Below are positions 3,692 to 21,875 of a stretch of DNA of 32,000 nucleotides, one piece after another (position 1 is the stretch's first letter; every line of letters begins with the position of its first letter). The DNA comes from an uncultured Chloroflexia bacterium. Its GTDB lineage: Bacteria; Chloroflexota; Anaerolineae; Anaerolineales; Anaerolineaceae. The DNA is taken from assembly GCA_963704755.1 (NCBI GenBank), contig OY969938.1, positions 4,350,001-4,382,000 of the forward strand, read 5' to 3'. Below the pieces are notes generated by a model that did no database searches, was not told the origin of the DNA, and was given only the letters and a program-made list of their open reading frames with translations. The position numbers and the translations under genes are program-made.

Positions 3692-4498
3692 ATGGCAGAA
3701 ACCGATTCTATTGCGTTGAACACCGAAAACCAGGATATCTGGGACACCAACGCCGAATTCTGGAACGAGCGCATGGGCGATGACGGCAATCAGTTCCACC
3801 TGAATATTGTCCGGCCGGCCGCGGATCGCTTGCTGGGGATCCAAAATGGTGAGATGGTTCTGGATGTGGCCTGCGGGAATGGCTTGTTTTCCCGCCACCT
3901 GGCCGACCAGGGCGCCTGTGTAATCGCCTGCGACTTCAGCCGCAAGCTGCTGGAGCTGGCGGCCAAGCGCTCGGTGAGTTACATTGGCCAGATCGAATAC
4001 CGTTATATCGACGCCACCGATGTGGACCAGATCCGGTCGCTGGGGCTGAGGCGTTTCGACGCGGCGGTCTGCAATATGGGGCTGATGGATATGGCTTCCA
4101 TCGATCCGCTGCTCAAGGGCCTGGCGCAGGTCCTGCGTCCGGGAGGGCGGTTTGTATTCACCTTGATGCACCCCTGTTTCAATAACCCTTCCTGCCGGCT
4201 GGGGGCCGAGGAAGAAGACCGGGAAGGGGAGTTGCTGACGACTTATTACGTCCGCACCAGTCGTTACCTGAACCAGGCTCCGGCCAAGGGACTGGCGATT
4301 TTAGGGCAGCCGCGACCGCAGTATTATTTCACCCGTACCCTCAGCCAGTTGCTCAACACATGCTTCGCGGCCGGCTATGTCGTGGACGGGTTGGAAGAGC
4401 CGCCAATCCCGCCGGAATGCCAGCCGAAACGAGCCCTGGATTGGTTCAATTTCCCCGAGTTTCCACCGGTGCTGGCCGTGCGCGTTCGCCTGCCTTAG
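3692..4498 (+). CDS. Class I SAM-dependent methyltransferase
   Basis: SAM-binding motif I VLDVACGNGLFS, followed by the acidic loop VIACDFS and motif LRPGGRFVF. Substrate is not inferable. Confidence 0.8.
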   Translation: MAETDSIALNTENQDIWDTNAEFWNERMGDDGNQFHLNIVRPAADRLLGIQNGEMVLDVACGNGLFSRHLADQGACVIACDFSRKLLELAAKRSVSYIGQIEYRYIDATDVDQIRSLGLRRFDAAVCNMGLMDMASIDPLLKGLAQVLRPGGRFVFTLMHPCFNNPSCRLGAEEEDREGELLTTYYVRTSRYLNQAPAKGLAILGQPRPQYYFTRTLSQLLNTCFAAGYVVDGLEEPPIPPECQPKRALDWFNFPEFPPVLAVRVRLP

Positions 4499-5214
4499 GC
4501 CTGGGGAATTGGCCGTTTGGCCGGCAGCCCAACCCGGCGAGGATAGCCTGGCGGGGTCGCGGCGACTTTATCCACCACAATTAAATAGCGTTGTTCGCTT
4601 ACCCCGGGGAGTTCGACCGGGATGAGCTGGCGTAGATGCCCGCCCAGGATGTGAATGGCCCGCTCGGCGGTTTGGGCTTCGGCCGGGCCGGCTTCCCCTT
4701 TTTGGGCCAGCATGCCGCCGCCTATACGGACCAGCGGCAGCAGGTATTCGGATAGCACCGGCATGGTGGCTACCGCCCGTGCGATGGCCCAATCGTATTG
4801 CTCGCGGTGACGTTTATCCGTCCCCAGTTCTTCAGCGCGAGCCTGGATCAGCGTTACCCGCTCCAGGTTGAGCGTTTCCACAATGTGCCGGCAGAAATCC
4901 AGCTTCTTCCCGATCGATTCGACCAGGGTCAGGTTCATCTGGGGAAGGAGGATTTTCAAAGGGATGCCCGGAAAACCCGCTCCGGTGCCGATATCGATCA
5001 GGCTTTCTGGCGGGCGGTTCTTCCAGGCTTTTAAACAGGTGAGCGAATTGAGGAAATGTTTGCTGCGAATCCCCTCCGAATCGCGGATAGCCGTCAGGTT
5101 GAAGCGGGAATTCCACTCGAGTAATTCCCCTTCATATTTTTCAAATGCGCCAATCTGGCGCGCCGTGAGTGAGATCCCCAACAGTGATTTAGTATCTTGG
5201 GACAATTTATCCAT
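4495..5214 (-). CDS. rsmG: 16S rRNA (guanine527-N7)-methyltransferase RsmG (GidB)
   Basis: LLEWNSRFNLTAIRD...HFLNSL...IDIGTGAGFPGIPLKI is the typical GidB/RsmG pattern. Length 239 aa. Its stop overlaps the convergent methyltransferase stop (cTTAg, 4495-4498). Confidence 0.9.
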   Translation of the reverse strand: MDKLSQDTKSLLGISLTARQIGAFEKYEGELLEWNSRFNLTAIRDSEGIRSKHFLNSLTCLKAWKNRPPESLIDIGTGAGFPGIPLKILLPQMNLTLVESIGKKLDFCRHIVETLNLERVTLIQARAEELGTDKRHREQYDWAIARAVATMPVLSEYLLPLVRIGGGMLAQKGEAGPAEAQTAERAIHILGGHLRQLIPVELPGVSEQRYLIVVDKVAATPPGYPRRVGLPAKRPIPQA

Positions 5215-9487: not shown

Positions 9488-10243
9488 ATGACGCATCGAT
9501 TTTACCTGCCCACCTCTGCTGTTCAAGGTGAGCAGGTTTTATTTCCCCAGGATGTTTCCCGGCAGATCACCCGGGTGCTGCGCCTACGGCCCGGCGCGGA
9601 GGTGATCGTTTTCTGCGGCGATGGCAGCGAAATCAAAGTAACCCTGTCCGTGCTGGACGCGGCTCAAACGGTAGGCGCCGTGCTCGAAAAATCGAACAAC
9701 CTGGCCGAACCAAAAGCCCAGGTGACCCTGTTCATCGGGCTAACCCAGCGCGAAAAGTTCGAATGGGTGCTGCAAAAGTGTACCGAGGTGGGGGTGAGCT
9801 CTTTTGTACCGCTGATCAGCGAGCGCAGCCTGGTCCAGTCCGCGCGGGAATTCGAGAACAAACAGCAGCGTTGGGAAAGAATCCTGCTGGAGGCAGCCGA
9901 ACAATCCGGGCGGGGGATCGTGCCGGGGCTGACCGCACCGCTGTCCTTTGCCGATGGGCTCGACCGGCTCGGCGGGCTAGAATTGGGGCTGTTTGCCTGG
10001 GAAGAGGAAAGCCGGCACAACCTGGATGAAGCGTTGGCCGGGAACGTGACAGCTCGTCAGATCGGCCTGATGGTTGGCCCGGAAGGCGGGTTCAGCCCGC
10101 AGGAGGCCCGGCAGGCGCAAACCGGGGGTTGGCAGCCGGTCAGCCTGGGCAAGCGTATTTTGCGCATGGAAACTGCCGCGGTGGTGGCTTCGGCCCTGGT
10201 GATCGATTATTTCGATAGAATGACCGCTCACCCCAATCGGTAA
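9488..10243 (+). CDS. rsmE: 16S rRNA (uracil1498-N3)-methyltransferase RsmE
   Basis: The N-terminus MTHRFYLP, the KFEWVLQKCTEVGV block, and C-terminal GPEGGFSPQE...LGKRILRMETAA match the SPOUT RsmE pattern. Length 251 aa. Confidence 0.88.
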   Translation: MTHRFYLPTSAVQGEQVLFPQDVSRQITRVLRLRPGAEVIVFCGDGSEIKVTLSVLDAAQTVGAVLEKSNNLAEPKAQVTLFIGLTQREKFEWVLQKCTEVGVSSFVPLISERSLVQSAREFENKQQRWERILLEAAEQSGRGIVPGLTAPLSFADGLDRLGGLELGLFAWEEESRHNLDEALAGNVTARQIGLMVGPEGGFSPQEARQAQTGGWQPVSLGKRILRMETAAVVASALVIDYFDRMTAHPNR

Positions 10244-10334: not shown

Positions 10335-11825
10335 TTAGAATAGTCGACGTGGAAGCAGGTTGCGCAGCCGTCCGGGTTGGACCCGCCCGCGTCCAAGAAT
10401 GCGGTCGGCAGTATCCCGCACGACGACCACGCCGGAAGGCGCCGGCCCGGCCGTAAAATCTCCGTCCAGGTCACTGCCGCTCAACCAGGCCGCCTCACTG
10501 CCTTCGGGCAGGGTGAGGCAACCGGCCTGGAATTGGGCGCCGAAACGGGAGACCCATTCGTGGGAGGGGGTCCATCCCTGGGGCGATTCCTCGGCCAGTT
10601 TGAGGCCGAGCAACTGGCAGGGCAAATCGCGGAAGCCGGCCAGGAAGCGCAGTGGCACGGCGTAAATCGCTCCGGGGCTATGCCACAAGTCCAGCTCCAG
10701 GTCCGCCAAGGTCGCTTCCAGGTCGAAACCGTAGCTATTGCGGAATAGATCGAGGATTTCGGCCGCCTCCTTGCGGTGAAGGGGCTGCTGGCCAACCTGG
10801 CTCAACGGTCGGGCCGGGGCCGGCTGGGATTGAGTTGGGATGGAACCGGTCTTGCGGATCAAGGCGGCGAAAAAGCCGGAAGTGCCATAGCGCTGAGGCC
10901 ACAAGCGGGCCGCGTTTTGCACCTGGGGATCAAAGTCCTGGCCAAAGGCGGCCGGCAGGGCCGGGGCCGGAACGGGCAGCTTGTCTCCGGGCGCAAGGAT
11001 TTCCACATCCTGCGGAAACCGCGCCAGGATTTCATTCAAAACAGCCTCGTCCTCTTCGGGGGCCAGGGTGCAGGTAGAATAGACAATTTGGCCGCCTGGC
11101 TTGAGCGCGGCTAACGCGGAGGCCAGTAAGGCAACTTGCCGGCGGGCCAGGGTGCTCTGCTCGCGGGACGAGATCGGACGCATGGGGTGGGCATCGGTCG
11201 AGCGCAGGGACTGCATGCTGCAGGGCGCATCCAGGAGGATGCGGTCGAAGGTTTCGGGAAACCAGCTCCCGAATTTCTCGCCGGGGAAACGCGTCACGGC
11301 CACATTGGCTGCACCCCAGGTTTGCAGCACGTAACGCAGGGCAGTAATCCGTTCGCCGGCCGAATCGTTGGCGATCACCAGGCCGCGGTCCAGGCTGCGG
11401 CTGATCAGGTGAGTGGTCTTGCCGCCCGGCGAAGCGGCCAGGTCGAGGATCAGCGGCTGGTCGGCCGGGTCCAGGTCGAACAGCTCGACCGGCAGCATCG
11501 AGGCCGCGTCCTGGATATAATAATGGCCCATGCGGTGTTCCAGCGTCTGGCTGACCGGCTCTGGGCTGGATTTGACCCACCAGCCAGTGGGGCAGTAAGG
11601 CACCCGCTCCAGCTCCCAGCCGTAGCGGGAAGCCCAACCGGCTTCATCACCCGGGACGGCTTTGAGCGGGTTGCTGCGCAGAGCCGGGTAGAGCGGTTTG
11701 TCCAGCTCATCCAGCAGCGTCTGGAAATCTCCGGGTGTGAGCAGGCTTTGGAATCGTTCCAACGAGGCTGCCTGAGCGTCCAGGGAGGGGGTAGGGGAAG
11801 TCGAGGTTTTCTTTTTACGGCTCAT
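10335..11825 (-). CDS. rsmF: 16S rRNA (cytosine1407-C5)-methyltransferase RsmF (YebU-like, NOL1/NOP2/Sun family)
   Basis: YYIQDAASMLP, LDLAASPGGKTTHL, LLDAPCS, YSTCTL, GFFAALIRK, plus the C-terminal LGLKLAE...RLRNLLPRRL domain, are colinear with E. coli RsmF as I remember it. The ORF is open to a TTG at 11840. The ATG at 11825 is preferred because it forms an ATGA overlap with the stop of the upstream Rmt-like reading frame. Confidence 0.82.
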   Translation of the reverse strand: MSRKKKTSTSPTPSLDAQAASLERFQSLLTPGDFQTLLDELDKPLYPALRSNPLKAVPGDEAGWASRYGWELERVPYCPTGWWVKSSPEPVSQTLEHRMGHYYIQDAASMLPVELFDLDPADQPLILDLAASPGGKTTHLISRSLDRGLVIANDSAGERITALRYVLQTWGAANVAVTRFPGEKFGSWFPETFDRILLDAPCSMQSLRSTDAHPMRPISSREQSTLARRQVALLASALAALKPGGQIVYSTCTLAPEEDEAVLNEILARFPQDVEILAPGDKLPVPAPALPAAFGQDFDPQVQNAARLWPQRYGTSGFFAALIRKTGSIPTQSQPAPARPLSQVGQQPLHRKEAAEILDLFRNSYGFDLEATLADLELDLWHSPGAIYAVPLRFLAGFRDLPCQLLGLKLAEESPQGWTPSHEWVSRFGAQFQAGCLTLPEGSEAAWLSGSDLDGDFTAGPAPSGVVVVRDTADRILGRGRVQPGRLRNLLPRRLF

Positions 11826-12663
11826 AATTTTTGGATACAAAAAACCAGCTCGTTGTGGAGCAGCAGCTCGTGAACGGGCCAGTCCAATCCTTCCAGGGTG
11901 GTGGTTACCAGCTTGCGCTGTTTTTCGGCCAGGTCGTGGCGCCCGGTCAGGCTGGAGGCTGGCAGCGAGACCAGCAGCCAGCGCACGTTGAGCGCCTGCC
12001 AGAAGGCCCGGTTGCAGCCCTTCTGGCGCTGCTCGAAGCGATGGGCTTCTTTAAAAATAAGGCCACGTCCGCCTCGAGCTCGGGGGGTTGGACCAGGATG
12101 TCCTGGTGACAGGCGCCGCCATTGGCGCCGCTGAGCTTGAGGAAGCGGTCGATCAAGGCCACCCGCGGGTGGTGCAGGTCGAAGGCGTGATAACTTGTAC
12201 CGGCCGGCAGGCCCATCCAGGGCAGGCCGAAGGGGTGCAGACCGCAGGCCAGGTCGAGGATCGAGGCCGGCCGGCAGGTTGCCTGCCAGAGTTGGGTGTA
12301 AAAATCGGCCAGTGAATTGATAGGCTCGCTGCGCTCGCGGGTAGAGGCGTGGCTGGCGAGCATTTCCTGGCAAAAGTCTCGGACCGCCTGAGCGTCGCCG
12401 GAAGCAAAGGCTGTTTCCATTACCTGGCCGGCCTGGGCGTAGTCCGGGTCGCCTAGGTAAGGTGCGACAATGTTGTGCAGCTTCTCGCGCACGGCCTGTT
12501 CGATTTGCTTGTGGCTGCGGCCGGGCAGGGCTTCCTGAGCGACCAGGTCACGCAGGGTGCTGTCGGGCAGGTCGAGGTTTTTGTATTTTCGCGCCGCACG
12601 GATCTCGTCCAGGTAGGATTGGAGGTCCGCAGGCTGGGTGGCTATGGAATTGGATTTTTTCAT
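11822..12663 (-). pseudogene. FmrO/Rmt/ArmA-family 16S rRNA (guanine1405-N7)-methyltransferase paralog 1, interrupted by a 1-nt frameshift
   Basis: ORF 11947..12663 carries ARKYKNL..., HASTRER and ILDLACGLHPFGLPW, as in RmtB/Sgm-type enzymes. Homology continues in ORF 11822..12373 (LIFKEAHRFEQ...VSLPASSLTG...ELVFCIQK). The switch is at the A5 run 12053-12057 (T5 on the coding strand), and one extra T restores ...DVALFFKEAHRFEQ... Confidence 0.8.
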
Positions 12664-12692
12664 CAGAGGCGATTATACCTGTTCAGGACGAA

Positions 12693-12905
12693 AAAAAACC
12701 ACGGAGGCACGGAGGACACGGAGAAGAATAATTTAATCACAGAGCAAACAGAGAAAAACATTACTAAGGGCAGGAATAGTTGCTTGGTGGAAGCGATCGG
12801 CCCGGTCTGGAGACCGGGCTGATCTGCATCTGGCTATCATTCTTCTTAAACAGTAGTTTCTCTTTTCCTCTTTTCTCCGTGTCCTCCGTGCCTCCGTGGT
12901 TTTTT
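12693..12905. repeat. MITE-like element with perfect 33-bp terminal inverted repeats
   Basis: 12693-12725 aaaaaaccacggaggcacggaggacacggagaa is the exact reverse complement of 12873-12905. Each arm contains three CTCCGTG-type heptads. There is an internal hairpin GCCCGGTC-tgga-GACCGGGC (12800-12819), and no ORF. Confidence 0.85.
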
Positions 12906-13058: not shown

Positions 13059-15647
13059 ATGAATTTGGATCGTTTCACACAAAAAGCACAAGAGGCCTTG
13101 ATGCAGTCTCAGCAGATTGCCGAGGATCTCAATCACCAATCGATTGAACAGGCACATATCCTGCTTGCGCTGGTTCAGCAGGAAGAGGGCGTCGTTCCGG
13201 CCATCGTGACCAAGATCTCCGGCAGCACGGCCGGCCTGGTCAGTGACCTGCGCCAGGAGCTCGAAAAACGCCCGAAAATTACCGGTTCGGGGACCGGCGA
13301 AGTGGGCCTTTCCCGCCCGGCCGCGGACGTATTGCAGGCTGCCGAGCGGTATGCCAAAGGCATGCGCGACGAGTACGTCTCGACCGAGCATATCCTGCTG
13401 GCGCTGACCGAAAGCAGCGAAGGCAAACGTCTGGCGCAATACGGTCTGACCAAAGACGCCATCCTGCGCGCGCTCAACGAAGTGCGCGGCAACCAGCGTG
13501 TGACCAGCCAGAACCCGGAAGATTCTTACCAGGCCCTGGAAAAATATGGCCGTGACCTGACCGCCGCGGCTCGCCAGGGCAAACTCGACCCGGTCATCGG
13601 CCGGGACGAGGAAATCCGCCGGGTGGTGCAAATCCTATCGCGGCGCAGCAAGAACAACCCGGCCCTGATCGGCGACCCAGGTGTGGGCAAAACCGCCATT
13701 GTGGAAGGCCTGGCCCAGCGCATCGTCAACGGCGACGTGCCCGAAAGCCTCAAGCACAAGCGCCTGATCAACCTGGACATGGGCTCCCTGGTGGCCGGGG
13801 CCAAATACCGCGGCGAGTTCGAAGAGCGCCTTAAAGCGGTGCTCAAAGAAGTTCAGTCGTCCCAGGGTGAAATCATTCTGTTCATCGATGAGATGCACAC
13901 TGTGGTCGGTGCAGGTGCGGCCGAAGGCTCGATGGATGCCGGCAATATGCTCAAACCCATGCTGGCGCGCGGCGAGCTGCACATGATCGGCGCGACGACC
14001 ATCGACGAATACCGCAAGTACATCGAAAAAGACGCGGCCCTGGAACGCCGTTTCCAGCCGGTCGTGGTCGGCGAACCCAGCATCGAAGATACCATCAGTA
14101 TTCTGCGCGGGCTCAAGCAGCGCTATGAGGTCCATCACGGTGTGCGTATCACCGATGCGGCGGTGATCGCGGCTGCCACGTTGTCCAATCGCTACATCAC
14201 CGACCGGCGTTTGCCGGACAAGGCCATCGACCTGATCGATGAGGCCGCTGCCCACCTGCGCACTGAAATCGACTCCAAGCCGCAAACGCTGGATGTAGTC
14301 GATCGCCAGATCATGCAACTGGAAATCGAACGCCAGGCGCTCAAAAAGGAAAAGGACAAGGCTTCGGCGGATCGGTTGCAGAAAATCGAGGTCGAGCTGG
14401 CCAACCTGCGGGAGCATTCTTCGGAACTGACCACCCGCTGGCAGACTGAAAAGGCAGCCATCGCCGATTTGCAAAAGATCAAAGAGCAGACTGAGCAGGC
14501 CCAGAACGAAATGGACGGCGCTGAGCGTCGCAATGATCTCGAAAAGGCTGCGCGCCTGCGCTATGGCACCCTTTACGAACTTCAAGAGAAGCGCGAAGCG
14601 GCCGAAAAACGGCTCCAGCAGCTCCAAAAAGATGGAGCGCTGCTGAAAGAGGAAGTGGACGCAGAAGAGATCGCCAGCATTGTCGCCAAGTGGACCCACA
14701 TCCCGGTAGAACGCTTGCTGGAAGGTGAAGTTCAGAAGCTGCTGCACATGGAAGAGCGCCTGCAAGACCGTGTAGTCGGCCAGGACGACGCTTTAAAGGT
14801 GGTGTCGAATGCCATCCGGCGCACGCGGGCCGGTCTGCAGGACCCCAACCGACCGATCGGTTCGTTCATCTTTCTCGGCCCGACCGGCGTGGGCAAGACC
14901 GAACTGGCCCGTGCCCTGGCGGAGTTCCTCTTCAACGATGAACGCGCCATGGTGCGCATCGACATGAGCGAATACCAGGAAAAACATACCGTCTCGCGCT
15001 TGATCGGCGCTCCTCCGGGTTACGTCGGGTACGACGAGGGCGGCCAGCTTACCGAAGCGGTCCGCCGCCACCCGTACACGGTGGTGCTGTTCGATGAGAT
15101 CGAAAAAGCCCATCCCGAAGTCTTCAACGTCTTGTTGCAGCTCCTGGATGATGGCCGCCTGACCGATGGACAGGGCCGCACGGTGGATTTTCGCAACTCG
15201 GTGGTCATCATGACCAGTAACCTGGGCAGCAGCCTGTGGATGGGCAATACGAAAGTGCCGCGTGAACAGGTTGTGCGCACTTTGCAGGAGCACTTCAAAC
15301 CGGAATTTCTCAACCGGATCGACGAGATCATCGTCTTTCATTCGCTCGAGAAGGAGCAGCTCGCCAGCATTGTGGCCATCCAGCTCAAACGAGTGGAGAA
15401 ACTGCTCGAAGAGCGCGGCTTTACCCTGGTCGTGGATGAGTCCGCCCGGGCTTACCTGGCCGAAGTGGGCTACGACCCCGATTTCGGCGCCCGCCCGCTC
15501 AAGCGCGCCATCCAGCGCGAGCTACAGGACCCGCTGGCGATGAAATTGCTGAACGGCGATTTTCATCCCGGCCAGACGATCCTCGTCTCGCGCGGCGCGG
15601 AAGGGCTGACGTTTGGTAGCGAGGAGCGGGTAGCTGTTAGCGATTAG
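13059..15647 (+). CDS. clpB: ATP-dependent chaperone ClpB
   Basis: 862 aa with a Clp N-domain, two AAA+ modules ([18 protein letters not shown]), a long coiled-coil M domain between them, and SD GGGAGGTGA upstream. Confidence 0.97.
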
Positions 15648-15663
15648 CTTTTTGCGGATAGCC

Positions 15664-16338
15664 TGTAGGGTGGGTGGAGGGCGGATTGGGTAAATCAGCG
15701 GTAGGAAAGATTGTTTGTTGCCCCAATCGTCGCCCGAAACCCACCGGGAGTGAGTGACTGATTGCGGGTGGGTGTTGGGAAACATCTATTCTAACTAAAC
15801 CGGAAAAATTGATTTTTTCAAGCCGAAACACGGTAACCATACCCATTCTTCCCTACCACCCGACGGTACATAGTCTACCAATATTCCTGACTACGCAGTA
15901 CGGGCGACCCATCCCTTGCTAACCGAAGCCATGTCTGGCAACAACCCTTTGCCGACCGTTGCTCTGTCTGGCATCGACGGGTCGCCCCTACGCCGGATAA
16001 CGAAAAATGGGGTATTGCTACCCGGTGTATATTTAGCTTTGAAGAGAATATTGGTTCAATTGTATTGCCTGGAGCGCCAATTTACTTGGGTGGTGAAAGA
16101 AAATTTACTCTTTGTCGGTGCGCTAAAGCGGCACGCGACGGGTAATTCGATTTAGTTGGAACAAATGTGCAGGGCAGAATTTATAGATCTTGGGAAGGAA
16201 GAACCTTTTGTACACCCAATCATCGCCCGAAACCCACCGGTAGCGGTTAGCCCGGATGGTGGGTTACGGGCAAGGTTTTGTAGGTCTTGCGGCGTACAGG
16301 TCACGGGGGTTATGAATGAGCCCTGCACCCACCCTACA
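15664..16338. repeat. Repeat-rich non-coding gap containing several palindromic repeat families
   Basis: It starts with TGTAGGGTGGGTGGAGGGCGGATT (15664-) and ends with the inverse AATGAGCCCTGCACCCACCCTACA (16315-16338). A CCAATCRTCGCCCGAAACCCACCGG motif occurs twice (about 15737 and 16214). A ~105-bp palindromic element at about 15893-15996 has ends GTACGGGCGACCC / GGGTCGCCCCTAC. The segment 16207-16338 is an inverted copy of 18975-19090. Confidence 0.75.
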
Positions 16339-16383
16339 TTTCTGTGTCCTGCGTGGTTTTCTTCCTCTGCTCTTTGTCCATTT

Positions 16384-17031
16384 TTATTTCTGGACAAGCG
16401 GCAAGAAAATTTTATCCACGATCTCGGCGATGGTTTCATCCGACACCGGCTCACGGGTAGTCAGAACTTCATAGCTGATTAAAGCGACGGGCAGCGAAAG
16501 CACCCGTGGGATGATATTCGCGGTGTGAATTTCGCCGCGCGCTTCTGCCTTTTTTAGAATTTGCAGCATCGCTGCGGTCCATCTTCCAATTTCTTGGGTT
16601 GGCTTGGCGCGAGAAAAAGTGGGGACAAAATCCCGGCCAAGCTGTTCGACCATCAGGCCGTGGATCGTCTCGGGACCAATCATTTGCAAAGGGAGAAGGA
16701 CATTATGAAGAAAGGTCACCAGGTCGGTGCGTAAATTGCCGGTGTCCGGTACGTTGTCCAGGGGGAACGGAATTTTCTTTAGCAATGCGGCAACGACCAG
16801 CCTGGCCTTGCTCGGCCAGCGCCGGTAAACCGCTGCTTTATTTGTTTTGGCTCGGTCCGCCACGGCTTCCATGGTCAGGCGGGAATAACCGACCTCGCTC
16901 AATTCTTCCCAGGCGGCTTCAAGGATGGCCTTTTCGAGGACCTCACCGCGCCGGCGAGATGTTAAAGGGCGGCCCGGTTTACTCGCGTGCATTTCTGAAG
17001 TGGGAGAGCGACCCTCATTTTGCTCGTTCAA
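16384..17031 (-). CDS. TetR/AcrR family transcriptional regulator
   Basis: N-terminal HTH: ILEAAWEELSEVGYSRLTMEAVADRAKTNKAAVYRRWPSK. The ORF starts at a TTG (17031), with an alternative ATG at 16992. It is divergent from the MFS gene. Confidence 0.88.
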   Translation of the reverse strand: MNEQNEGRSPTSEMHASKPGRPLTSRRRGEVLEKAILEAAWEELSEVGYSRLTMEAVADRAKTNKAAVYRRWPSKARLVVAALLKKIPFPLDNVPDTGNLRTDLVTFLHNVLLPLQMIGPETIHGLMVEQLGRDFVPTFSRAKPTQEIGRWTAAMLQILKKAEARGEIHTANIIPRVLSLPVALISYEVLTTREPVSDETIAEIVDKIFLPLVQK

Positions 17032-17057
17032 TTTATTTTCCTCAGTGATTTTGCCTA

Positions 17058-17086
17058 TTGCATTTTCGCCAGATCTATTATATCAT
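17058..17086 (+). promoter_or_regulatory. Candidate promoter of the MFS efflux gene
   Basis: TTGCAT (17058-17063), then 17 nt, then TATCAT (17081-17086). Sequence pattern only. Confidence 0.4.
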
Positions 17087-17089
17087 ATG

Positions 17090-17119
17090 AATTAGATACG
17101 ATACGTACCGTATCTAATT
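17090..17119. promoter_or_regulatory. Candidate TetR operator (perfect 11-bp inverted repeat)
   Basis: AATTAGATACG-atacgtac-CGTATCTAATT lies immediately downstream of the candidate -10, in the tetR/MFS divergent intergenic region. Confidence 0.55.
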
Positions 17120-17134
17120 ATTTGGTTCGAGAGG

Positions 17135-18622
17135 ATGTTTCGCATGTCAACTAATCAATCTACAGGTGTAAATACCAAGAAGGAAAAACTCGATCCACGG
17201 GTGATGAAAGCGGCGATCATCCTGGTCATCTGCTCGCTTGCGCCTATGCTGGATTCAACGATGATGAATGTGGCCATCAAAACCATCACGGTGGACCTCA
17301 AAAGCACGGTAGCCGTTATCCAATGGGTCATCACCGGCTACGTTCTGGCCATGGGCATCGCTATACCGATTTCCGGCTGGGCCGACAACCGCTTTGGAGG
17401 CAAACGAGTTTTTGTAGCTTCGTTATTGGCGTTCTTAACCGGTTCCATTCTTTCTTCTCTGTCGTGGAACATAGGCAGCCTGATCCTTTTCAGGCTCATT
17501 CAAGGGTTCGGTGCCGGGTTATTGATCCCGACCATGCAAACCCTGTTGGTACAGGTTTCGGGCGGCAAACAGTTGGGTCAGTTAATGTCCTTTGTCAGCA
17601 TCCCGGCCGCTTTTGCGCCTATCCTTGGACCGGTCGTAGGCGGCGTGATCGTCAACAGCCTGAGCTGGCGTTGGATTTTCTATGTGAACATCCCTGTAAC
17701 CCTGATTTCCATTCTTTTGGCCTGGCGTGGCCTGCCGGAGGATCAGAAATCCGACCATAAGCAGTCGTTGGATTGGGTAGGCATCCTCTTGCTTTCACCG
17801 GCGTTTGCCGTTCTTATCTATGGCATTGCCCAGGTTAGTTCTCATGGCGGGCTGGCCAGCAGCGCTGTCCTGGTGCCTTTGATCATCGGCCTGGTCCTCA
17901 TGACGACCTTTGTCATTTATTCTTTGAGGCGCAAAAGCGCAGCGGTGCTGGACTTGCGGCTTTTCGGTTCGAGAAACTTTTCCGCTTCCAACCTCTTGAT
18001 TTTTCTCTCGGGAATTATCGCCAATGGGTCCTTGCTGCTTATCCCGCTCTATTTCCAACAAATTCGTGGTGAAAGTGTCTTATTTGCCGGGTTATTGTTG
18101 ATCCCTCAGGGGGTGGGGATGTTGCTGACGCGAAGCCAAATCGGCAAGCTGACCGACCGCATCGGCGCGCGCCTGATTGTGCTGGTCATTCTGGTCGTCA
18201 CGGTGATCAGTACGCTGCCTTTCGCCTTTGCCGATGCCCAGACGAGTCTGATTATCCTGGGTGTTGCGCTGTTTATTCGCGGCGCATCGCAGGGTGGGCT
18301 GATCATTCCGCTGATGGCTACTGCCTACCTTGGACTTAAAAAGGAGCACATTCCCGACGCCAGCACGGCGACCAGAATTACGGCGACCATCGGCAGCGCT
18401 TTTGGGTCGGCCGTTCTGGCAACCGTGCTGCAGCATCAAATGTCCATGCAGGCTGTAGCCAGCGTCCAGTCCAGTGTAAATGCTTATAACGTGGCCTTCT
18501 GGTGGACGATCGGCTTCACCGTGGTTTCCATTATTCCAGTTTTGTTCCTGTCCGCGCGCAAAGCGGAACCGGAACAAGCAAAATTATCACAGCAGGAGTT
18601 GGAAGCTACCCCGATTGAATAA
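17135..18622 (+). CDS. MFS transporter, DHA2 (EmrB/QacA-like, 14-TMS) drug:H+ antiporter family
   Basis: About 14 hydrophobic segments. Motifs LDSTMMNVAIKTI, GWADNRFGGKRV, LIQGFGAGLLIP. A second ATG at 17144 has better spacing to GAGGA and may be the true start. Confidence 0.88.
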   Translation: MFRMSTNQSTGVNTKKEKLDPRVMKAAIILVICSLAPMLDSTMMNVAIKTITVDLKSTVAVIQWVITGYVLAMGIAIPISGWADNRFGGKRVFVASLLAFLTGSILSSLSWNIGSLILFRLIQGFGAGLLIPTMQTLLVQVSGGKQLGQLMSFVSIPAAFAPILGPVVGGVIVNSLSWRWIFYVNIPVTLISILLAWRGLPEDQKSDHKQSLDWVGILLLSPAFAVLIYGIAQVSSHGGLASSAVLVPLIIGLVLMTTFVIYSLRRKSAAVLDLRLFGSRNFSASNLLIFLSGIIANGSLLLIPLYFQQIRGESVLFAGLLLIPQGVGMLLTRSQIGKLTDRIGARLIVLVILVVTVISTLPFAFADAQTSLIILGVALFIRGASQGGLIIPLMATAYLGLKKEHIPDASTATRITATIGSAFGSAVLATVLQHQMSMQAVASVQSSVNAYNVAFWWTIGFTVVSIIPVLFLSARKAEPEQAKLSQQELEATPIE

Positions 18623-19418: not shown

Positions 19419-20231
19419 TCATTTCCTGGTCAGCAGATAGGCCAGCTCCCCGGGAAAATCGAAACGGCGGGCGTCGAAGGGCAGGCCGGCCAGCAACTCC
19501 AGAAAGTGAGCGTCGTAATTGCTGCGCATACCCTTGCTCTTACCGCCCAGGCTGTGCGCCGGGAAAGTTACCAGGATGTGCTCGGCCTGGATGCCGCCCA
19601 ACAGCCGCCGGCCGATGGCTTTATCGACCTGCTCCAGGCAGGGGATGGTTTTGAGCAGCAGCGCCAGTTGGACCGGCTGCTGCGGCACGGATTGGGTCAG
19701 GTCGCAGACACTGGCCTGGCCGGCGATGGCAAAGTGGGCGAAAAACCGGTTCAGGAAGGCAGCCTGGTCGGCGTAAATATCGCAAACCTGGAGGGTGACA
19801 TCCGGCGAAAGAGGCATCCAACTGAAGGCCAGGGGATTCAGGCCACAAGCCAGGTCCAGCAGCGAGCGCAGTGGTTGGATAGGCGCCAGAGTTTCGGCGT
19901 AGAAACGTTCCAGGTAAGGCAGGCGTTCGCGGGTGGAGGTGTGCTCGGCCATCATTTCCAGGCAAAACTGGCGGGCCGGTTCGCTGTGAACGTCGCCCAG
20001 CAGACCGGCCAGGCGCTCACTCCACTTCGTATAGACGATGGGTTTTTCCTGGTAAGCGCCGCCCACCTGGTGCAGTTTATTACGCACTGCCTTGACCAGC
20101 TCCTTGCGGCTGCGGCTGTTGGCCAATTCGCGTTCGAGCAGCCGGCGGACGAAGCCGGGGTCGATGGGGGCGTATTTGGCGCCGGCCTGCACCTCGGCGA
20201 CCAGCTCGTCCAGGTCGGCCGGGGAATTCAC
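19419..20231 (-). CDS. FmrO/Rmt/ArmA-family 16S rRNA (guanine1405-N7)-methyltransferase paralog 2 (aminoglycoside-resistance type)
   Basis: AKYAPID..., HTSTRER, LLDLACGLNPLAFSW, ALLLKTIPCLEQ, TFPAHSLGGKSKGMRSNY and ELAYLL are colinear with RmtB/ArmA/Sgm as I remember them. A GTG start overlaps the upstream TGA (GTGA). Confidence 0.85.
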   Translation of the reverse strand: MNSPADLDELVAEVQAGAKYAPIDPGFVRRLLERELANSRSRKELVKAVRNKLHQVGGAYQEKPIVYTKWSERLAGLLGDVHSEPARQFCLEMMAEHTSTRERLPYLERFYAETLAPIQPLRSLLDLACGLNPLAFSWMPLSPDVTLQVCDIYADQAAFLNRFFAHFAIAGQASVCDLTQSVPQQPVQLALLLKTIPCLEQVDKAIGRRLLGGIQAEHILVTFPAHSLGGKSKGMRSNYDAHFLELLAGLPFDARRFDFPGELAYLLTRK

Positions 20232-21325
20232 GGCTGCTCCTGCCGTATGCGGTCGGTGAGCTGGGTCATAAAGCGCAGGTTGTGCAGGGTAGCCAGGCGC
20301 AGGTATAAGCCGTCGTTGAGCTTGAACAGATGGTGCAGATAACCCAGCGAGTAATGCCGGCAGGTAGGACAGTCACAGAACTGCGATACCGGCTGGTCGG
20401 CTTTGATGTGCTGCTCGTCGTTGATGTATAGGTATTTGAGCCAATCGCCGCTCAAGCTGCCCGGAGAGCCGGCCGGTTGGGTGAAGGTGTACAGCCGGCC
20501 GTGGCGGGCATCGCGGGTGGGCATGGCACAGTCGAAGATGCCGTAGCCCATGCGGTACCCGGAGAGCACGTTGTGCGGGTGGCCGATCCCCAGGGCATGG
20601 ATGGGGAATTCCTGCGGGACCAGCGAGCGGGTATATTCCAGGATCTCGCTTAGGAGCTGGCCCTCGGAATCCAGCGGCCAGCCGCCAAATCCATAACCAT
20701 CGAAGCCGAGTTCCAGCAGCGCTTCGGCGCAGCGTTTGCGCAGGTCGAATTCACCGCCGCCCTGGATGACCGCGAACAACCTGGGAATTTGGCCGGCGGG
20801 CAATTTCTTCTGGGCAATCTGGCGATCGAACTCGGCCCGGGCGCGTTTTGCCCAGCCAATCGTCCGGCCGACCGATAGCTCCTGCTCGCTGCGGGGTGCA
20901 TCTACGTGAGTGCAGTCGTCCAGGCAAATGACCACATCGGCGCCGTAAGCCAACTGCAATTGGATGCCTTTTTCAGGGGTCAACTGAAACTTGCGCGTGT
21001 TGCCTTCCGGCTGAAAGGTGATTCCACGATCGTCCATTTTGCCGAATTTAGGGTTGTTGCGAATCAACGAGTAAGCCTGAAAACCACCCGAGTCGGTAAT
21101 AATCGGGTGGGGCCAGGAACTCATCTTGTGCAGCCCCCCCAAGGCCTGGATGGTGCTGGAACCAGGGCGCTGCATCAGGTGAAATGTATTCATCACCGCG
21201 GCCCGGATCTGGACCGCTTCCAGGTCGCGTGAATCGATGGTACGCACGACCCCAAAGGTTGCGTCTGGCATAAATACCGGGAATTCGAGCGTGCCATGAA
21301 GGAGTTGGAGTGAATTAACCTGCAT
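20228..21325 (-). CDS. Divergent tRNA-guanine transglycosylase (TGT) family protein
   Basis: TGT motifs FPVFMPDAT, ITDSGGFQ, LDDC, FDCAMPTRDARHG, and the Zn site CDCPTCRHY...LHH are present. The canonical GYAIGGLAVGE pocket segment is replaced by GYGFGGWPLDSEG, and LMGVGTP by ALGIGHP. SD GAGGA lies upstream. Confidence 0.8.
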   Translation of the reverse strand: MQVNSLQLLHGTLEFPVFMPDATFGVVRTIDSRDLEAVQIRAAVMNTFHLMQRPGSSTIQALGGLHKMSSWPHPIITDSGGFQAYSLIRNNPKFGKMDDRGITFQPEGNTRKFQLTPEKGIQLQLAYGADVVICLDDCTHVDAPRSEQELSVGRTIGWAKRARAEFDRQIAQKKLPAGQIPRLFAVIQGGGEFDLRKRCAEALLELGFDGYGFGGWPLDSEGQLLSEILEYTRSLVPQEFPIHALGIGHPHNVLSGYRMGYGIFDCAMPTRDARHGRLYTFTQPAGSPGSLSGDWLKYLYINDEQHIKADQPVSQFCDCPTCRHYSLGYLHHLFKLNDGLYLRLATLHNLRFMTQLTDRIRQEQP

Positions 21326-21371
21326 AATCCTCGTTTAGACGGGTGCCTGGGGCACCAAATATTTCGACTGG

Positions 21372-21875
21372 TCAGAGCTGGTCATCCAGGTCGATGGCTA
21401 ATTCTATCTCATCCCGAATGGGAATCCCGAAATTGCCGATTGCCGGGATCTCGGGCTTGAGCCGGCGCGAACGCTCGATCGCACCAGGGAAAACCGCGAC
21501 CAGTCGAAATCCGCGGCGCTGGTAGAAGCGCAGGCCATCCAGGTTGTCGTTGGTGGTGATCAGCCACAGGCGCCGGCAGTGATTTTGGCGGGCGTAGGTT
21601 TTGGCGGCCTGGACCAGCAGAGTCCCAATGCCCAGGTGGGGTTGGAGGCTGTCGATGGTGACGATTTCACAGCCCTTGGGTGTGATGGAACAGGTAACCA
21701 GTCCAACCGGCCGGCCGGATAAGGTGGCGACAAAACCGGGCAGCCCGGCGGGGTAGATCAATTCCCCATGGGCCACGACCGTCTCGGCGCCCCAGCGGTC
21801 GATCGTGAAGCGGGTCACCCAATCCCGGTCACTTTCGACCAGCGGACGCAAGGTTGCCGAATTTAACTCATCCAT
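21372..21875 (-). CDS. GNAT family N-acetyltransferase
   Basis: 167 aa. Acetyl-CoA motif A region HLGIGTLLVQAAKTYARQ and C-terminal FYQRRGFRLV. It lies 46 nt upstream of the TGT-like gene on the same strand. Confidence 0.8.
   Translation of the reverse strand: MDELNSATLRPLVESDRDWVTRFTIDRWGAETVVAHGELIYPAGLPGFVATLSGRPVGLVTCSITPKGCEIVTIDSLQPHLGIGTLLVQAAKTYARQNHCRRLWLITTNDNLDGLRFYQRRGFRLVAVFPGAIERSRRLKPEIPAIGNFGIPIRDEIELAIDLDDQL

Follow-up and report, generated by a model that had tools for sequence, protein, structure and literature searches.

The three genes at positions 19,419-21,875 of the window, as the whole 32,000-nt stretch of DNA analyzed here is called, form the leading part of a gene cluster that is conserved phylum-wide in Chloroflexota. 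The genome is one of the Anaerolineae (Chloroflexota). TGT was located directly upstream of FmrO1 in 72 of 82 related loci, usually overlapping it, and the cluster is composed of ordinary enzyme families in a conserved arrangement. We consider it quite likely that the cluster is vertically inherited and co-expresses modifiers of both RNA partners at the ribosomal decoding site. This reading builds on gene identities, conserved residues, synteny and distribution, and from these it predicts which RNAs are targeted, that Tgt is specific for preQ1 and that the genes are transcribed together.

Gene layout in the window

ORF calls and profile matches bore out the original prediction of three minus-strand genes encoding GNAT, TGT and FmrO, and profile searches agreed with its family assignments (E-values of 2e-13 for GNAT on PF00583, 9e-93 for TGT on PF01702 and 9e-45 for FmrO1 on PF07091). 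The GNAT stop is separated from the TGT ATG by 46 nt as described, and this gap contains an AGGA-type ribosome-binding site. The GTGA at 20228-20231 was correctly read as the TGT stop TGA overlapping the GTG start of FmrO1, and a GGAG lies 8 nt upstream of that start. The motifs quoted earlier all occur in the translations, namely HTSTRER, DLACGLNP and SLGGKSKGM in FmrO1, and TDSGGFQ, FDCAMPTR, CDCPTC...HH, GYGFGGWPLDSEG and ALGIGHP in TGT. Rfam and tRNA scans of the window gave zero matches, and a search for promoters and terminators at 18.6-22.2 kb found none above shuffled expectation.

Table 1. Features of the cluster and of its insertion in the window.
Feature	Position	Strand	Basis
GNAT N-acetyltransferase, 167 aa	21372..21875	-	PF00583 profile match
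TGT (Tgt, 'GGWPLD' subfamily), 365 aa	20228..21325	-	PF01702, TIGR00430
FmrO1, 270 aa, GTG start	19419..20231	-	PF07091, NF000466, Sgm 3lcu match
Lineage-specific insertion ClpB/TetR/MFS	13059..18622	.	Pfam
ClpB	13059-15647	+	Pfam
TetR	16384-17031	-	Pfam
MFS transporter	17135-18622	+	Pfam
FmrO2, interrupted by 1-nt frameshift	11822..12663	-	PF07091, tblastn
RsmF-type 16S rRNA m5C1407 methyltransferase	10335..11825	-	PF01189 + PF17125
RsmE-type 16S rRNA m3U1498 methyltransferase	9488..10243	+	PF04452, TIGR00046

The genes had been described as a compact three-gene module. The genes are indeed there, but the module is not complete between GNAT and FmrO1: it resumes after a 6.7-kb insertion with FmrO2, RsmF and RsmE, located 7-10 kb downstream of TGT-FmrO1. 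ClpB, TetR and MFS were found at this position in none of 80 genome loci, and the GC content is 0.50-0.52 at 16-18 kb vs ~0.58 elsewhere in the window.

The 5' ORF of FmrO2 matched PF07091 with 107 bits, and intact FmrO2 proteins searched against the window by tblastn gave two HSPs in different frames. Direct reading of the sequence showed that one nt is missing from a run of T near 12052-12057. To check this frameshift in a second assembly, the exact product of the window RsmF was searched for, with no match. Reading of the next junction showed that the likely ATG of RsmF at 11825 overlaps the FmrO2 stop (ATGA). The best NCBIfam model for this RsmF was RsmF NF008898 (272.9 bits, below the cut-off), and the protein is 57% identical to one located after FmrO2 in a related locus (L013). 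RsmE, which is convergent with RsmF in the window, scored 164.6 bits on PF04452 and 161.9 bits on TIGR00046 against a cut-off of 41.

Conservation of the cluster across Chloroflexota

The adjacency of TGT and FmrO1 spans Anaerolineae, Thermoflexia and Ktedonobacteria, with a spacing from TGT stop to FmrO1 start of mostly -23 to +9 nt. The pairing, for which the original prediction knew of no description, is thus real and strongly conserved among relatives according to the neighborhood survey, and our literature search found a description neither of the pairing nor of the conserved cluster arrangement. The larger conserved order is YhhQ - RsmI - TGT - FmrO1 - FmrO2 - RsmF - RsmE, and in L051, L062 and L080 the seven genes all run in the same direction. 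Over the 82 loci, FmrO was counted in 82, TGT in 72, RsmF in 41, RsmE in 36 (mostly just past RsmF), RsmI-type proteins in 35 and YhhQ in 25; an intact FmrO2 follows FmrO1 in ~50 loci. The cluster RsmI scored 181.9 on TIGR00096 (cut-off 167.9) and YhhQ 118 on TIGR00697 (cut-off 51), while the identities of the cluster RsmF and RsmE were taken from Pfam.

No other adjacency of the cluster is preserved as strongly as that of Tgt and FmrO1, and the pair is kept in Ktedonobacteria and low-GC lineages after loss of the remaining cluster genes. The suggestion of a coupled RNA-modification system holds in the sense of a conserved cluster of translation-machinery modifiers that would be co-transcribed, but not beyond that weak sense.

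TGT and the two FmrO-type proteins

TGT scored 312 bits on PF01702 and passed TIGR00430 narrowly (318.2 vs 306.75). Its orthologues ranged from 304.6 to 323.1 bits on TIGR00430, some of them, such as the L084 protein at 304.6, failing the cut-off, and one orthologue was named merely 'family protein' by PGAP. TGT aligned over the full length with Z. mobilis and E. coli Tgt (E ~1e-62, ~37% identical), and it shares with these bacterial enzymes the catalytic and Zn residues. D102, D156, C158, Q203, G229, G230, D280, R286 and R289 are kept in this alignment, as are the Zn ligands C318/C320/C323/H349; the catalytic nucleophile Asp280, Asp102 and the base-binding Asp156/Gln203/Gly230 were aligned and identical. 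We take R286 and R289 to be the residues reading U35 of the UGU target in the Z. mobilis Tgt-RNA complex.

The earlier claim that the substrate-pocket loops of TGT differ from canonical Tgt was confirmed. Compared with the same two enzymes, TGT displayed the substitutions L231W, A232P, V233L, G234D, Y258H, M260L and K264H. TGT keeps neither YLMGVGxP nor GGLAVGE, the canonical preQ1-specificity loop whose Leu231/Ala232 peptide switch works with Glu235: GGLAVGE is GGWPLD(x), where position 232 is Pro and Glu235 is gone, and YLMGVGKP is HALG(I/V)GHP. GGWPLD and HALG[IV]GHP are invariant across 66 TGT orthologues, S, G, A and other residues occupy the variable position of Glu235, and the only systematic changes fall in the loop reading N7 or the 7-substituent. 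TGT also differs from bacterial Tgt by a ~14-residue insertion before the Zn motif. In a neighbor-joining tree without bootstrap support, rooted on E. coli Tgt, the 'GGW' subfamily formed a clade apart from canonical Tgt.

To read guanine N7, canonical Tgt uses the backbone NH of Ala232 together with the switch of Glu235. Trp-Pro-Leu-Asp in place of Leu-Ala-Val-Gly-Glu would remove both, and judged from the sequence the remodelled loop probably locks the pocket in a preQ1-accepting state. The HxxGxGHP motif presumably resembles the archaeal version. TGT shares the fold family with both ArcTGT and DpdA, but assignment to either was rejected: the ArcTGT model gave 82 bits vs a cut-off of 350 and 1iq8 matched with only 1.9e-8, while 7ui4 (DpdA) matched with only 3.3e-5. 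TGT is without the ArcTGT C-terminal domains, and there are no dpd genes nearby. The pocket is also unlike that of the queuine-salvaging Tgt type, which has a GG[LS][AS]G motif (PMC10723273). Neither Chloroflexota nor a GGW pocket type was mentioned in the text of the queuosine-salvage papers searched.

TGT had been called a divergent paralog. It is instead the orthologue carried by these classes, with about one TGT per QueA and QueG in class-level counts. The published numbers are QueE 6, QueC 18, TGT 210, QueA 248 and QueG 208 for Anaerolineae, and TGT/QueA/QueG of 57/48/51 for Anaerolineaceae and 39/50/30 for Ktedonobacteria (PMC11570991 Table S1); the class-level counts argue against a second canonical Tgt beside TGT. 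YhhQ (queuosine-precursor transporter) or QueT adjoins TGT in related loci, and a 58%-identical relative has the order QueT-TGT-FmrO. Together, these counts at the level of classes, orders and families, the low numbers for preQ0 synthesis and the YhhQ or QueT next to TGT indirectly indicate that TGT is probably the sole housekeeping, salvage-fed Tgt of the lineage. A lone tgt was among the original prediction's own grounds for refutation, and the counts point that way indirectly.

FmrO1 scored 153.5 bits on PF07091 (cut-off 27) and 193.8 bits on NF000466, under the equivalog cut-off of 250. The nearest solved relative is Sgm (3lcu, 4.7e-39, 137.7 bits), and FmrO1 is ~25-34% identical to the solved enzymes. 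The RmtC-30S structure has assigned roles on the 30S subunit to RmtC residues (PMC10054953), and RmtC H54, S107, D160, K204, G240 and M245 are identical in all 73 aligned FmrO1 orthologues. The Y60 position is Tyr in 70 and Phe in three of them, and the R241 position is R or K in 66/73, with K in the window FmrO1. The SAM-binding residues S107, D134 and D160, as well as K204, which positions G1405 together with Y60, occur both in the window FmrO1 and in 73/73 orthologues. Among the residues docking on 30S and distorting helix 44, K20, R50, H54 and M245 correspond to K19, R, H and M in the window FmrO1, while Lys236 is His (R/H/Q/K across the clade). Sgm was sister to the FmrO1 clade, again in a neighbor-joining tree without bootstrap support. 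Since the essential RmtC residues are kept and Sgm is the sister, the most likely role of FmrO1 is that of an intrinsic 16S m7G1405 methyltransferase.

FmrO1 has PF07091, length and two-domain layout in common with the producer enzymes Sgm, GrmA, FmrO and Kgm and the acquired ArmA and RmtA-H. However, its gene lies on the chromosome throughout the phylum, in synteny with tgt and with housekeeping rRNA methyltransferases, rather than in an antibiotic cluster or on a mobile element, and unlike the Sgm/Arm/Rmt enzymes it is accompanied by a second paralogue. Earlier, Chloroflexi FmrO homologues had been no more than 'uncharacterized' entries of a tree (bioRxiv 10.1101/712810). FmrO2 is ~30% identical to FmrO1 and has a different loop 237-246 and a His at position 207. 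It has the 30S-docking and catalytic residues of FmrO1 but not its helix-44-distorting loop, and is probably an older paralogue.

Explanations for the cluster and their meaning

The full ancestral cluster would have comprised YhhQ as a preQ0/preQ1 importer, RsmI (Cm1402), Tgt, FmrO1, FmrO2, RsmF (m5C1407) and RsmE (m3U1498). In tRNAs with a GUN anticodon, Tgt would replace G34 by an imported precursor of the 7-deazaguanine type, most probably preQ1, and QueA and QueG, encoded elsewhere, would turn the inserted precursor into queuosine. FmrO1, predicted to be translationally coupled to Tgt via the GTGA overlap, would be a constitutive chromosomal m7G1405 methyltransferase acting on mature 30S subunits. 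GNAT would be only an occasional neighbor of the cluster. The E. coli genes for RsmH, RsmI, RsmF and RsmE are scattered round the chromosome and we know of no FmrO-type enzyme in E. coli, whereas in Chloroflexota decoding-center methyltransferase genes are clustered with tgt, a Q-precursor transporter and two FmrO-type enzymes. The E. coli queA-tgt-yajC-secDF likewise has tgt in a conserved operon with genes mechanistically unlinked to it. The nucleotides modified by RsmI, RsmF and RsmE, all on mature 30S subunits, are 1402, 1407 and 1498 (PMC10054953). According to work cited in that paper (references 33-35 in PMC10054953), m7G1405 impedes RsmF in E. coli, so the presence of RsmF and FmrO1 in one operon would require ordering or adaptation.

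Plain co-expression leaves the top conservation of the usually overlapping Tgt-FmrO1 junction unaccounted for. This junction persists without FmrO2, RsmF and RsmI (Ktedonobacteria L050, L059 and L060; L085/L086; L084), every other enzyme gene of the cluster targets nucleotides 1402-1407 or 1498, and the invariant Tgt changes are confined to the N7/7-substituent loop, all of which would fit a mechanistic coupling of Tgt and FmrO1 beyond co-expression, as a complex or through successive action on the same RNA. In one version, m7G made by FmrO, with its weakened glycosidic bond and positive charge, would be read by the Trp-Pro-x-Asp loop and lead to 7-deazaguanine exchange; in another, TGT would also act on helix 44 of 16S rRNA. 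We regard such coupling as unlikely. The class-level TGT:QueA:QueG ratio of ~1:1:1 would mean that this one TGT must serve tRNA queuosine synthesis, the adjacent Q-precursor transporter fits ordinary salvage, and the U35-reading R286 and R289 are kept while G1405 sits in a CGU context in E. coli 16S. Moreover, in L082 and L087 more distant GGW-type TGTs stand without FmrO, TGT is absent from 5-6 FmrO1 loci, and a Trp231 facing the base is presumed by the coupling reading only. A two-step base replacement, in which N7-methylation by FmrO marks or activates a guanine of tRNA or of the 16S decoding site and the Tgt loop then recognizes the m7G for exchange with imported 7-deazaguanine, seems highly improbable; the invariant Trp-Pro-x-Asp is reminiscent of m7G-cap recognition, with its cation-pi stacking and acidic residue, and if true such replacement would be a new RNA editing logic and provide the first 7-deazaguanine in rRNA. 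It is also doubtful that FmrO1 and FmrO2 methylate another guanine of rRNA or tRNA, their Rmt likeness reflecting only the fold and the 30S docking surface. Both paralogues scored below the NF000466 cut-off (193.8 and ~175 vs 250), FmrO2 differs in its loop and at position 207, and two paralogues per operon suggest two different targets; however, FmrO1 keeps H54, Y60, K204, R/K241 and M245, which flip and position G1405 in RmtC, and groups with Sgm, a proven G1405 enzyme.

The original prediction had also offered an aminoglycoside-resistance-like island with a passenger tgt, considered here as a self-resistance or acquired module of acetyltransferase and G1405 methylase. High-level aminoglycoside resistance is indeed conferred by members of the FmrO family, namely Sgm and the Rmt enzymes, and in the window GNAT adjoins the TGT-FmrO pair with a TetR/MFS pair nearby; in L085/L086, TGT-FmrO is followed by a GNAT unrelated to this one, and L086 has an IS66 transposase upstream. 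However, GNAT (51 bits on PF00583) matched no AAC model, scoring far under the cut-offs of curated models (27/86 for RimI, 16.5/140 for AAC(6') group E), and had only weak generic GNAT matches in the PDB. It was found in 3/80 genome loci, and between thioredoxin and TGT only in L010 and L026 (47-49% identity); GNAT is an inconsistent accessory neighbor of the cluster. TGT-FmrO is vertically inherited across classes, and its flanks (ProRS, S9 peptidase and thioredoxin) show synteny with the chromosomes of Bellilinea and Longilinea. The GC content is native, the window has no tRNA genes, and neither a transposase nor an integrase was found among its annotated ORFs, which are not all of its ORFs. 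The conserved neighbors are housekeeping rRNA methyltransferases, and aminoglycoside biosynthesis genes were not seen among the annotated neighbors. The island reading, already largely refuted by synteny, retains very little probability.

Under the preferred reading of a vertically inherited decoding-site cluster, several consequences follow if FmrO1 makes m7G1405. The modification, to our knowledge so far known only as producer self-protection or acquired clinical resistance, would be both constitutive and ancient in the ribosomes of Chloroflexota and genetically integrated with RsmI, RsmF and RsmE, and intrinsic high-level resistance to 4,6-disubstituted deoxystreptamine aminoglycosides would be predicted phylum-wide. 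Our literature search found no settled origin of the Arm/Rmt enzymes; Chloroflexota, an abundant environmental phylum, may be a deep natural reservoir and possible evolutionary source of them. Metagenomic resistome surveys should not count chromosomal FmrO genes as mobile resistance genes. The cluster also defines a second FmrO subfamily, FmrO2, and the operon may serve as a natural system for how RsmF copes with m7G1405. The salvage-tied 'GGW' Tgt subfamily would add a third pocket type to the preQ1 and queuine types.

The TGT-FmrO pair and its conservation

Three adjacent co-directional genes encoding a GNAT, a tRNA-guanine transglycosylase-family protein (TGT) and an FmrO-family protein (FmrO1) were recovered as ORFs, and all motifs quoted in the original prediction are present. 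Profile matches assigned the three families without ambiguity. As read directly from the sequence, the GNAT-TGT spacer of 46 nt contained an AGGA ribosome-binding site, and the TGT stop and FmrO1 start shared GTGA with a GGAG 8 nt upstream.

Features of the cluster and its surroundings in the window
Feature	Position	Strand	Evidence or remark
GNAT	21372-21875	minus	ORF; PF00583, 2e-13
TGT-family protein	20228-21325	minus	ORF; PF01702, 9e-93
FmrO-family protein (FmrO1)	19419-20231	minus	ORF; PF07091, 9e-45
ClpB, TetR, MFS transporter	13059-18622		between FmrO1 and FmrO2
FmrO2	11822-12663	minus	expected strand
RsmF	10335-11825		expected strand
RsmE	9488-10243	plus	expected strand
RsmG/GidB (m7G527 family)	4495-5214	minus	PF02527
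Class I methyltransferase	3692-4498		
333-aa ORF	880-1881	plus	no Pfam match

Using the FmrO protein as query with one genome per species, 80 loci were obtained, of which 79 were labelled Chloroflexota. They spanned Anaerolineaceae, Brevefilum, Ornatilinea, Thermoflexus, Caldilineaceae and Ktedonobacteria, and included the complete genomes of Longilinea arvoryzae and Ktedonosporobacter rubrisoli. The proposed TGT-FmrO adjacency held in other genomes: in 72 of 82 loci the gene immediately 5' of FmrO was a TGT orthologue (tblastn and ORF clustering), and the distance from TGT stop to FmrO start was mostly -23 to +9 nt. The pairing was also kept around more distant TGTs, one 52% identical from a 6.3-Mb genome (FmrO next, accompanied by a further FmrO and a TP_methylase), one 50% identical from a low-GC lineage (FmrO, then an unrelated GNAT) and one 58% identical (QueT-TGT-FmrO).

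The locus L084 (5490-7528), from a 46%-GC lineage, encoded QueT (an ECF-type queuosine-precursor transporter), a TGT with a GGYPLD variant and FmrO. Here the connection of the pair with precursor salvage runs via a transporter family other than YhhQ. In a low-GC (36-39%) lineage, the loci L085 (191-2661) and L086 (16-3994) displayed the order TGT-FmrO-GNAT. This FmrO was the closest to RmtC in our analysis (36% identity; RmtC model, 161.6 bits), the GNAT was unrelated to that of the window, the identical TGT protein occurred on 17 contigs, and on one of the two contigs an IS66 transposase was located directly upstream. These loci may carry a mobilisable version of the pair. The sole FmrO1 match labelled outside Chloroflexota (L063, JAYTNY010000711.1, a Roseobacter sp. 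MAG) was on an 8-kb contig without TGT, and its label probably reflects misbinning, not lateral transfer.

The larger cluster and its genomic context

The trio had been described as a compact module. The three genes are adjacent and co-directional, but they represent just the front part of a split cluster conserved in the phylum. Further genes flanked the pair in most loci. A second paralogue, FmrO2 (about 30% identical), was located immediately after FmrO1, and next to it an RsmF-type m5C methyltransferase (PF01189 and PF17125). An RsmE gene (PF04452) was detected in 36 loci, an RsmI gene in about 35 (TIGR00096 score 181.9, cut-off 167.9) and a COG1738/YhhQ queuosine-precursor transporter in 25 (PF02592; TIGR00697, 118 against a cut-off of 51). 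All seven genes were co-directional in L051, L062 and L080, in the order YhhQ-RsmI-TGT-FmrO1-FmrO2-RsmF-RsmE. The loci L028, L031, L039, L042, L044, L045 and L054 each encoded two TP_methylase (RsmI-like) proteins sharing about 30-35% identity; the first gene lies upstream of TGT, the other beyond YhhQ on the opposite strand (positions about 4190-4900 and 12280-12780); for these loci the TIGR00096 comparison covers the copy upstream of TGT.

In the window the cluster is interrupted by ClpB, TetR and MFS transporter genes, none of which occupied this site in 80 related genomes; GC content is lower (0.50-0.52) in the TetR/MFS part. The FmrO1-FmrO2 junction was also opened by 0.2-2.7 kb in several Bellilinea-like relatives, which suggests repeated insertion at this site. 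The FmrO2 of the window displayed two overlapping frames near 12052-12057, with an apparent 1-nt deletion in a T-run (TTATTTTTAAAG) where the intact orthologues have LFFKEAH. Either the homopolymer was misread in sequencing, or the gene is truly a pseudogene in this strain.

The nearest homologues of TGT and FmrO1 were from Anaerolineae (Bellilinea, Longilinea and Anaerolineaceae MAGs), an identical copy of the FmrO1 protein was encoded on a 4.87-Mb contig, and the GNAT recurred in only three of the related loci surveyed. The suggestion of an aminoglycoside-resistance island is essentially excluded. Evidence against a mobile island comes from the GC content of the module (0.56-0.62, the same as the window), the lack of tRNA genes in the window and of transposases or integrases among its annotated ORFs, and the synteny of the upstream thioredoxin, S9 peptidase and ProRS genes with Bellilinea and Longilinea chromosomes. 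No Rfam match was found in the window. Elsewhere it encodes another 16S rRNA methyltransferase (RsmG/GidB), a class I methyltransferase, and a 333-aa ORF between a cNMP-binding protein and a peptide deformylase.

The Tgt pocket and its precursor

When compared with bacterial Tgt, ArcTGT and DpdA, the window TGT was placed with bacterial Tgt, being about 37% identical over the full length to the Z. mobilis and E. coli enzymes (E about 1e-62), far from ArcTGT (1.9e-8) and DpdA (3.3e-5). It narrowly passed TIGR00430 (318.2 against a cut-off of 306.75). It retains Asp102, Asp156, Cys158, Gln203, Gly229/230, Asp280, Arg286/289 and the Zn ligands. The predicted divergence of the pocket was upheld, with WPLD(x) instead of LAVGE at positions 231-235 and HALGIGH instead of YLMGVGK at 258-264; both variant motifs were invariant across 66 orthologues, the Glu235 position being variable. 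When 1.84 billion cluster representatives were searched, proteins of this 'GGW' type accounted for many 50%-identity clusters, and a neighbour-joining tree set them apart from the canonical GGLAVGE type. In Z. mobilis Tgt, the Leu231/Ala232 peptide acts as a switch. By analogy, with proline at 232 the enzyme would lack the backbone NH needed to read guanine N7. Together with the loss of Glu235, this may fix the pocket in the preQ1-accepting state, which, if true, would be useful under precursor scarcity. The queuine-salvaging Tgt differs from the GGW type, having a GG[LS][AS]G pocket (PMC10723273).

InterPro counts per taxon at class, order or family level (Table S1, PMC11570991)
Taxon		QueE	QueC		TGT	QueA	QueG	
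Anaerolineae	102	6	18	37	210	248	208	17
Anaerolineales	54	5	12	15	104	113	109	5
Anaerolineaceae	21	2	5	7	57	48	51	1
Ktedonobacteria	81	27	34	28	39	50	30	0

On average, Anaerolineae and Ktedonobacteria encode one TGT per QueA and QueG, and genes for de novo preQ0 synthesis are mostly absent in Anaerolineae (PMC11570991). These class-level 1:1:1 counts, the few preQ0 genes and the YhhQ or QueT beside TGT suggest that these organisms have just one Tgt, the one in the cluster, and that it is fed by salvaged precursor. Because QueA requires the aminomethyl group of preQ1, the base inserted is likely preQ1.

FmrO paralogues and the probable function of the cluster

Among solved structures FmrO1 was most related to Sgm (137.7 bits), with RmtB, RmtC and ArmA scoring lower, and a neighbour-joining tree placed Sgm as the sister of the FmrO1 clade. 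In the RmtC-30S structure, His54, Tyr60, Ser107, Asp160, Lys204, Lys236, Arg241 and Met245 are functionally critical (PMC10054953). Across 73 aligned FmrO1 orthologues, H54, S107, D134, D160, K204, G240 and M245 were invariant, position 60 was Tyr or Phe, 241 was Arg or Lys in 66, and 236 was basic or polar. FmrO1 fell below the NCBI Rmt equivalog model (193.8 against a cut-off of 250). Judged from its sequence, FmrO1 is probably an intrinsic m7G1405 methyltransferase. FmrO2 formed a separate clade that retains the N-terminal docking residues, SAM-binding residues and Lys204, with a different helix-44-distorting loop.

Two features hint that the Tgt and FmrO1 mechanisms may be directly linked: the exceptional persistence of the gene junction and the location of the Tgt changes in the N7-reading loop. 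The 1:1:1 ratio of TGT, QueA and QueG, the linkage of TGT to transporters and the occurrence of GGW-type TGTs where FmrO is absent speak against such a link, which we regard as improbable. The best reading, in which we have reasonable confidence, is a conserved operon of enzymes modifying the translation machinery. Its enzymes would all act on the decoding site, namely the tRNA wobble base and 16S rRNA positions 1402, 1405, 1407 and 1498.

Every protein of the cluster is a member of a known family. Chloroflexi FmrO homologues were noted once, as 'uncharacterized' (bioRxiv 10.1101/712810), and our literature search found no description of the Tgt-FmrO pairing, the seven-gene cluster, the FmrO2 subfamily or the GGW Tgt pocket. 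According to references 33-35 as cited in PMC10054953, C1407 methylation by RsmF is hindered in E. coli when Sgm or an Arm/Rmt enzyme acts. The operon is therefore of interest in that FmrO- and RsmF-type activities are encoded side by side despite this interference.
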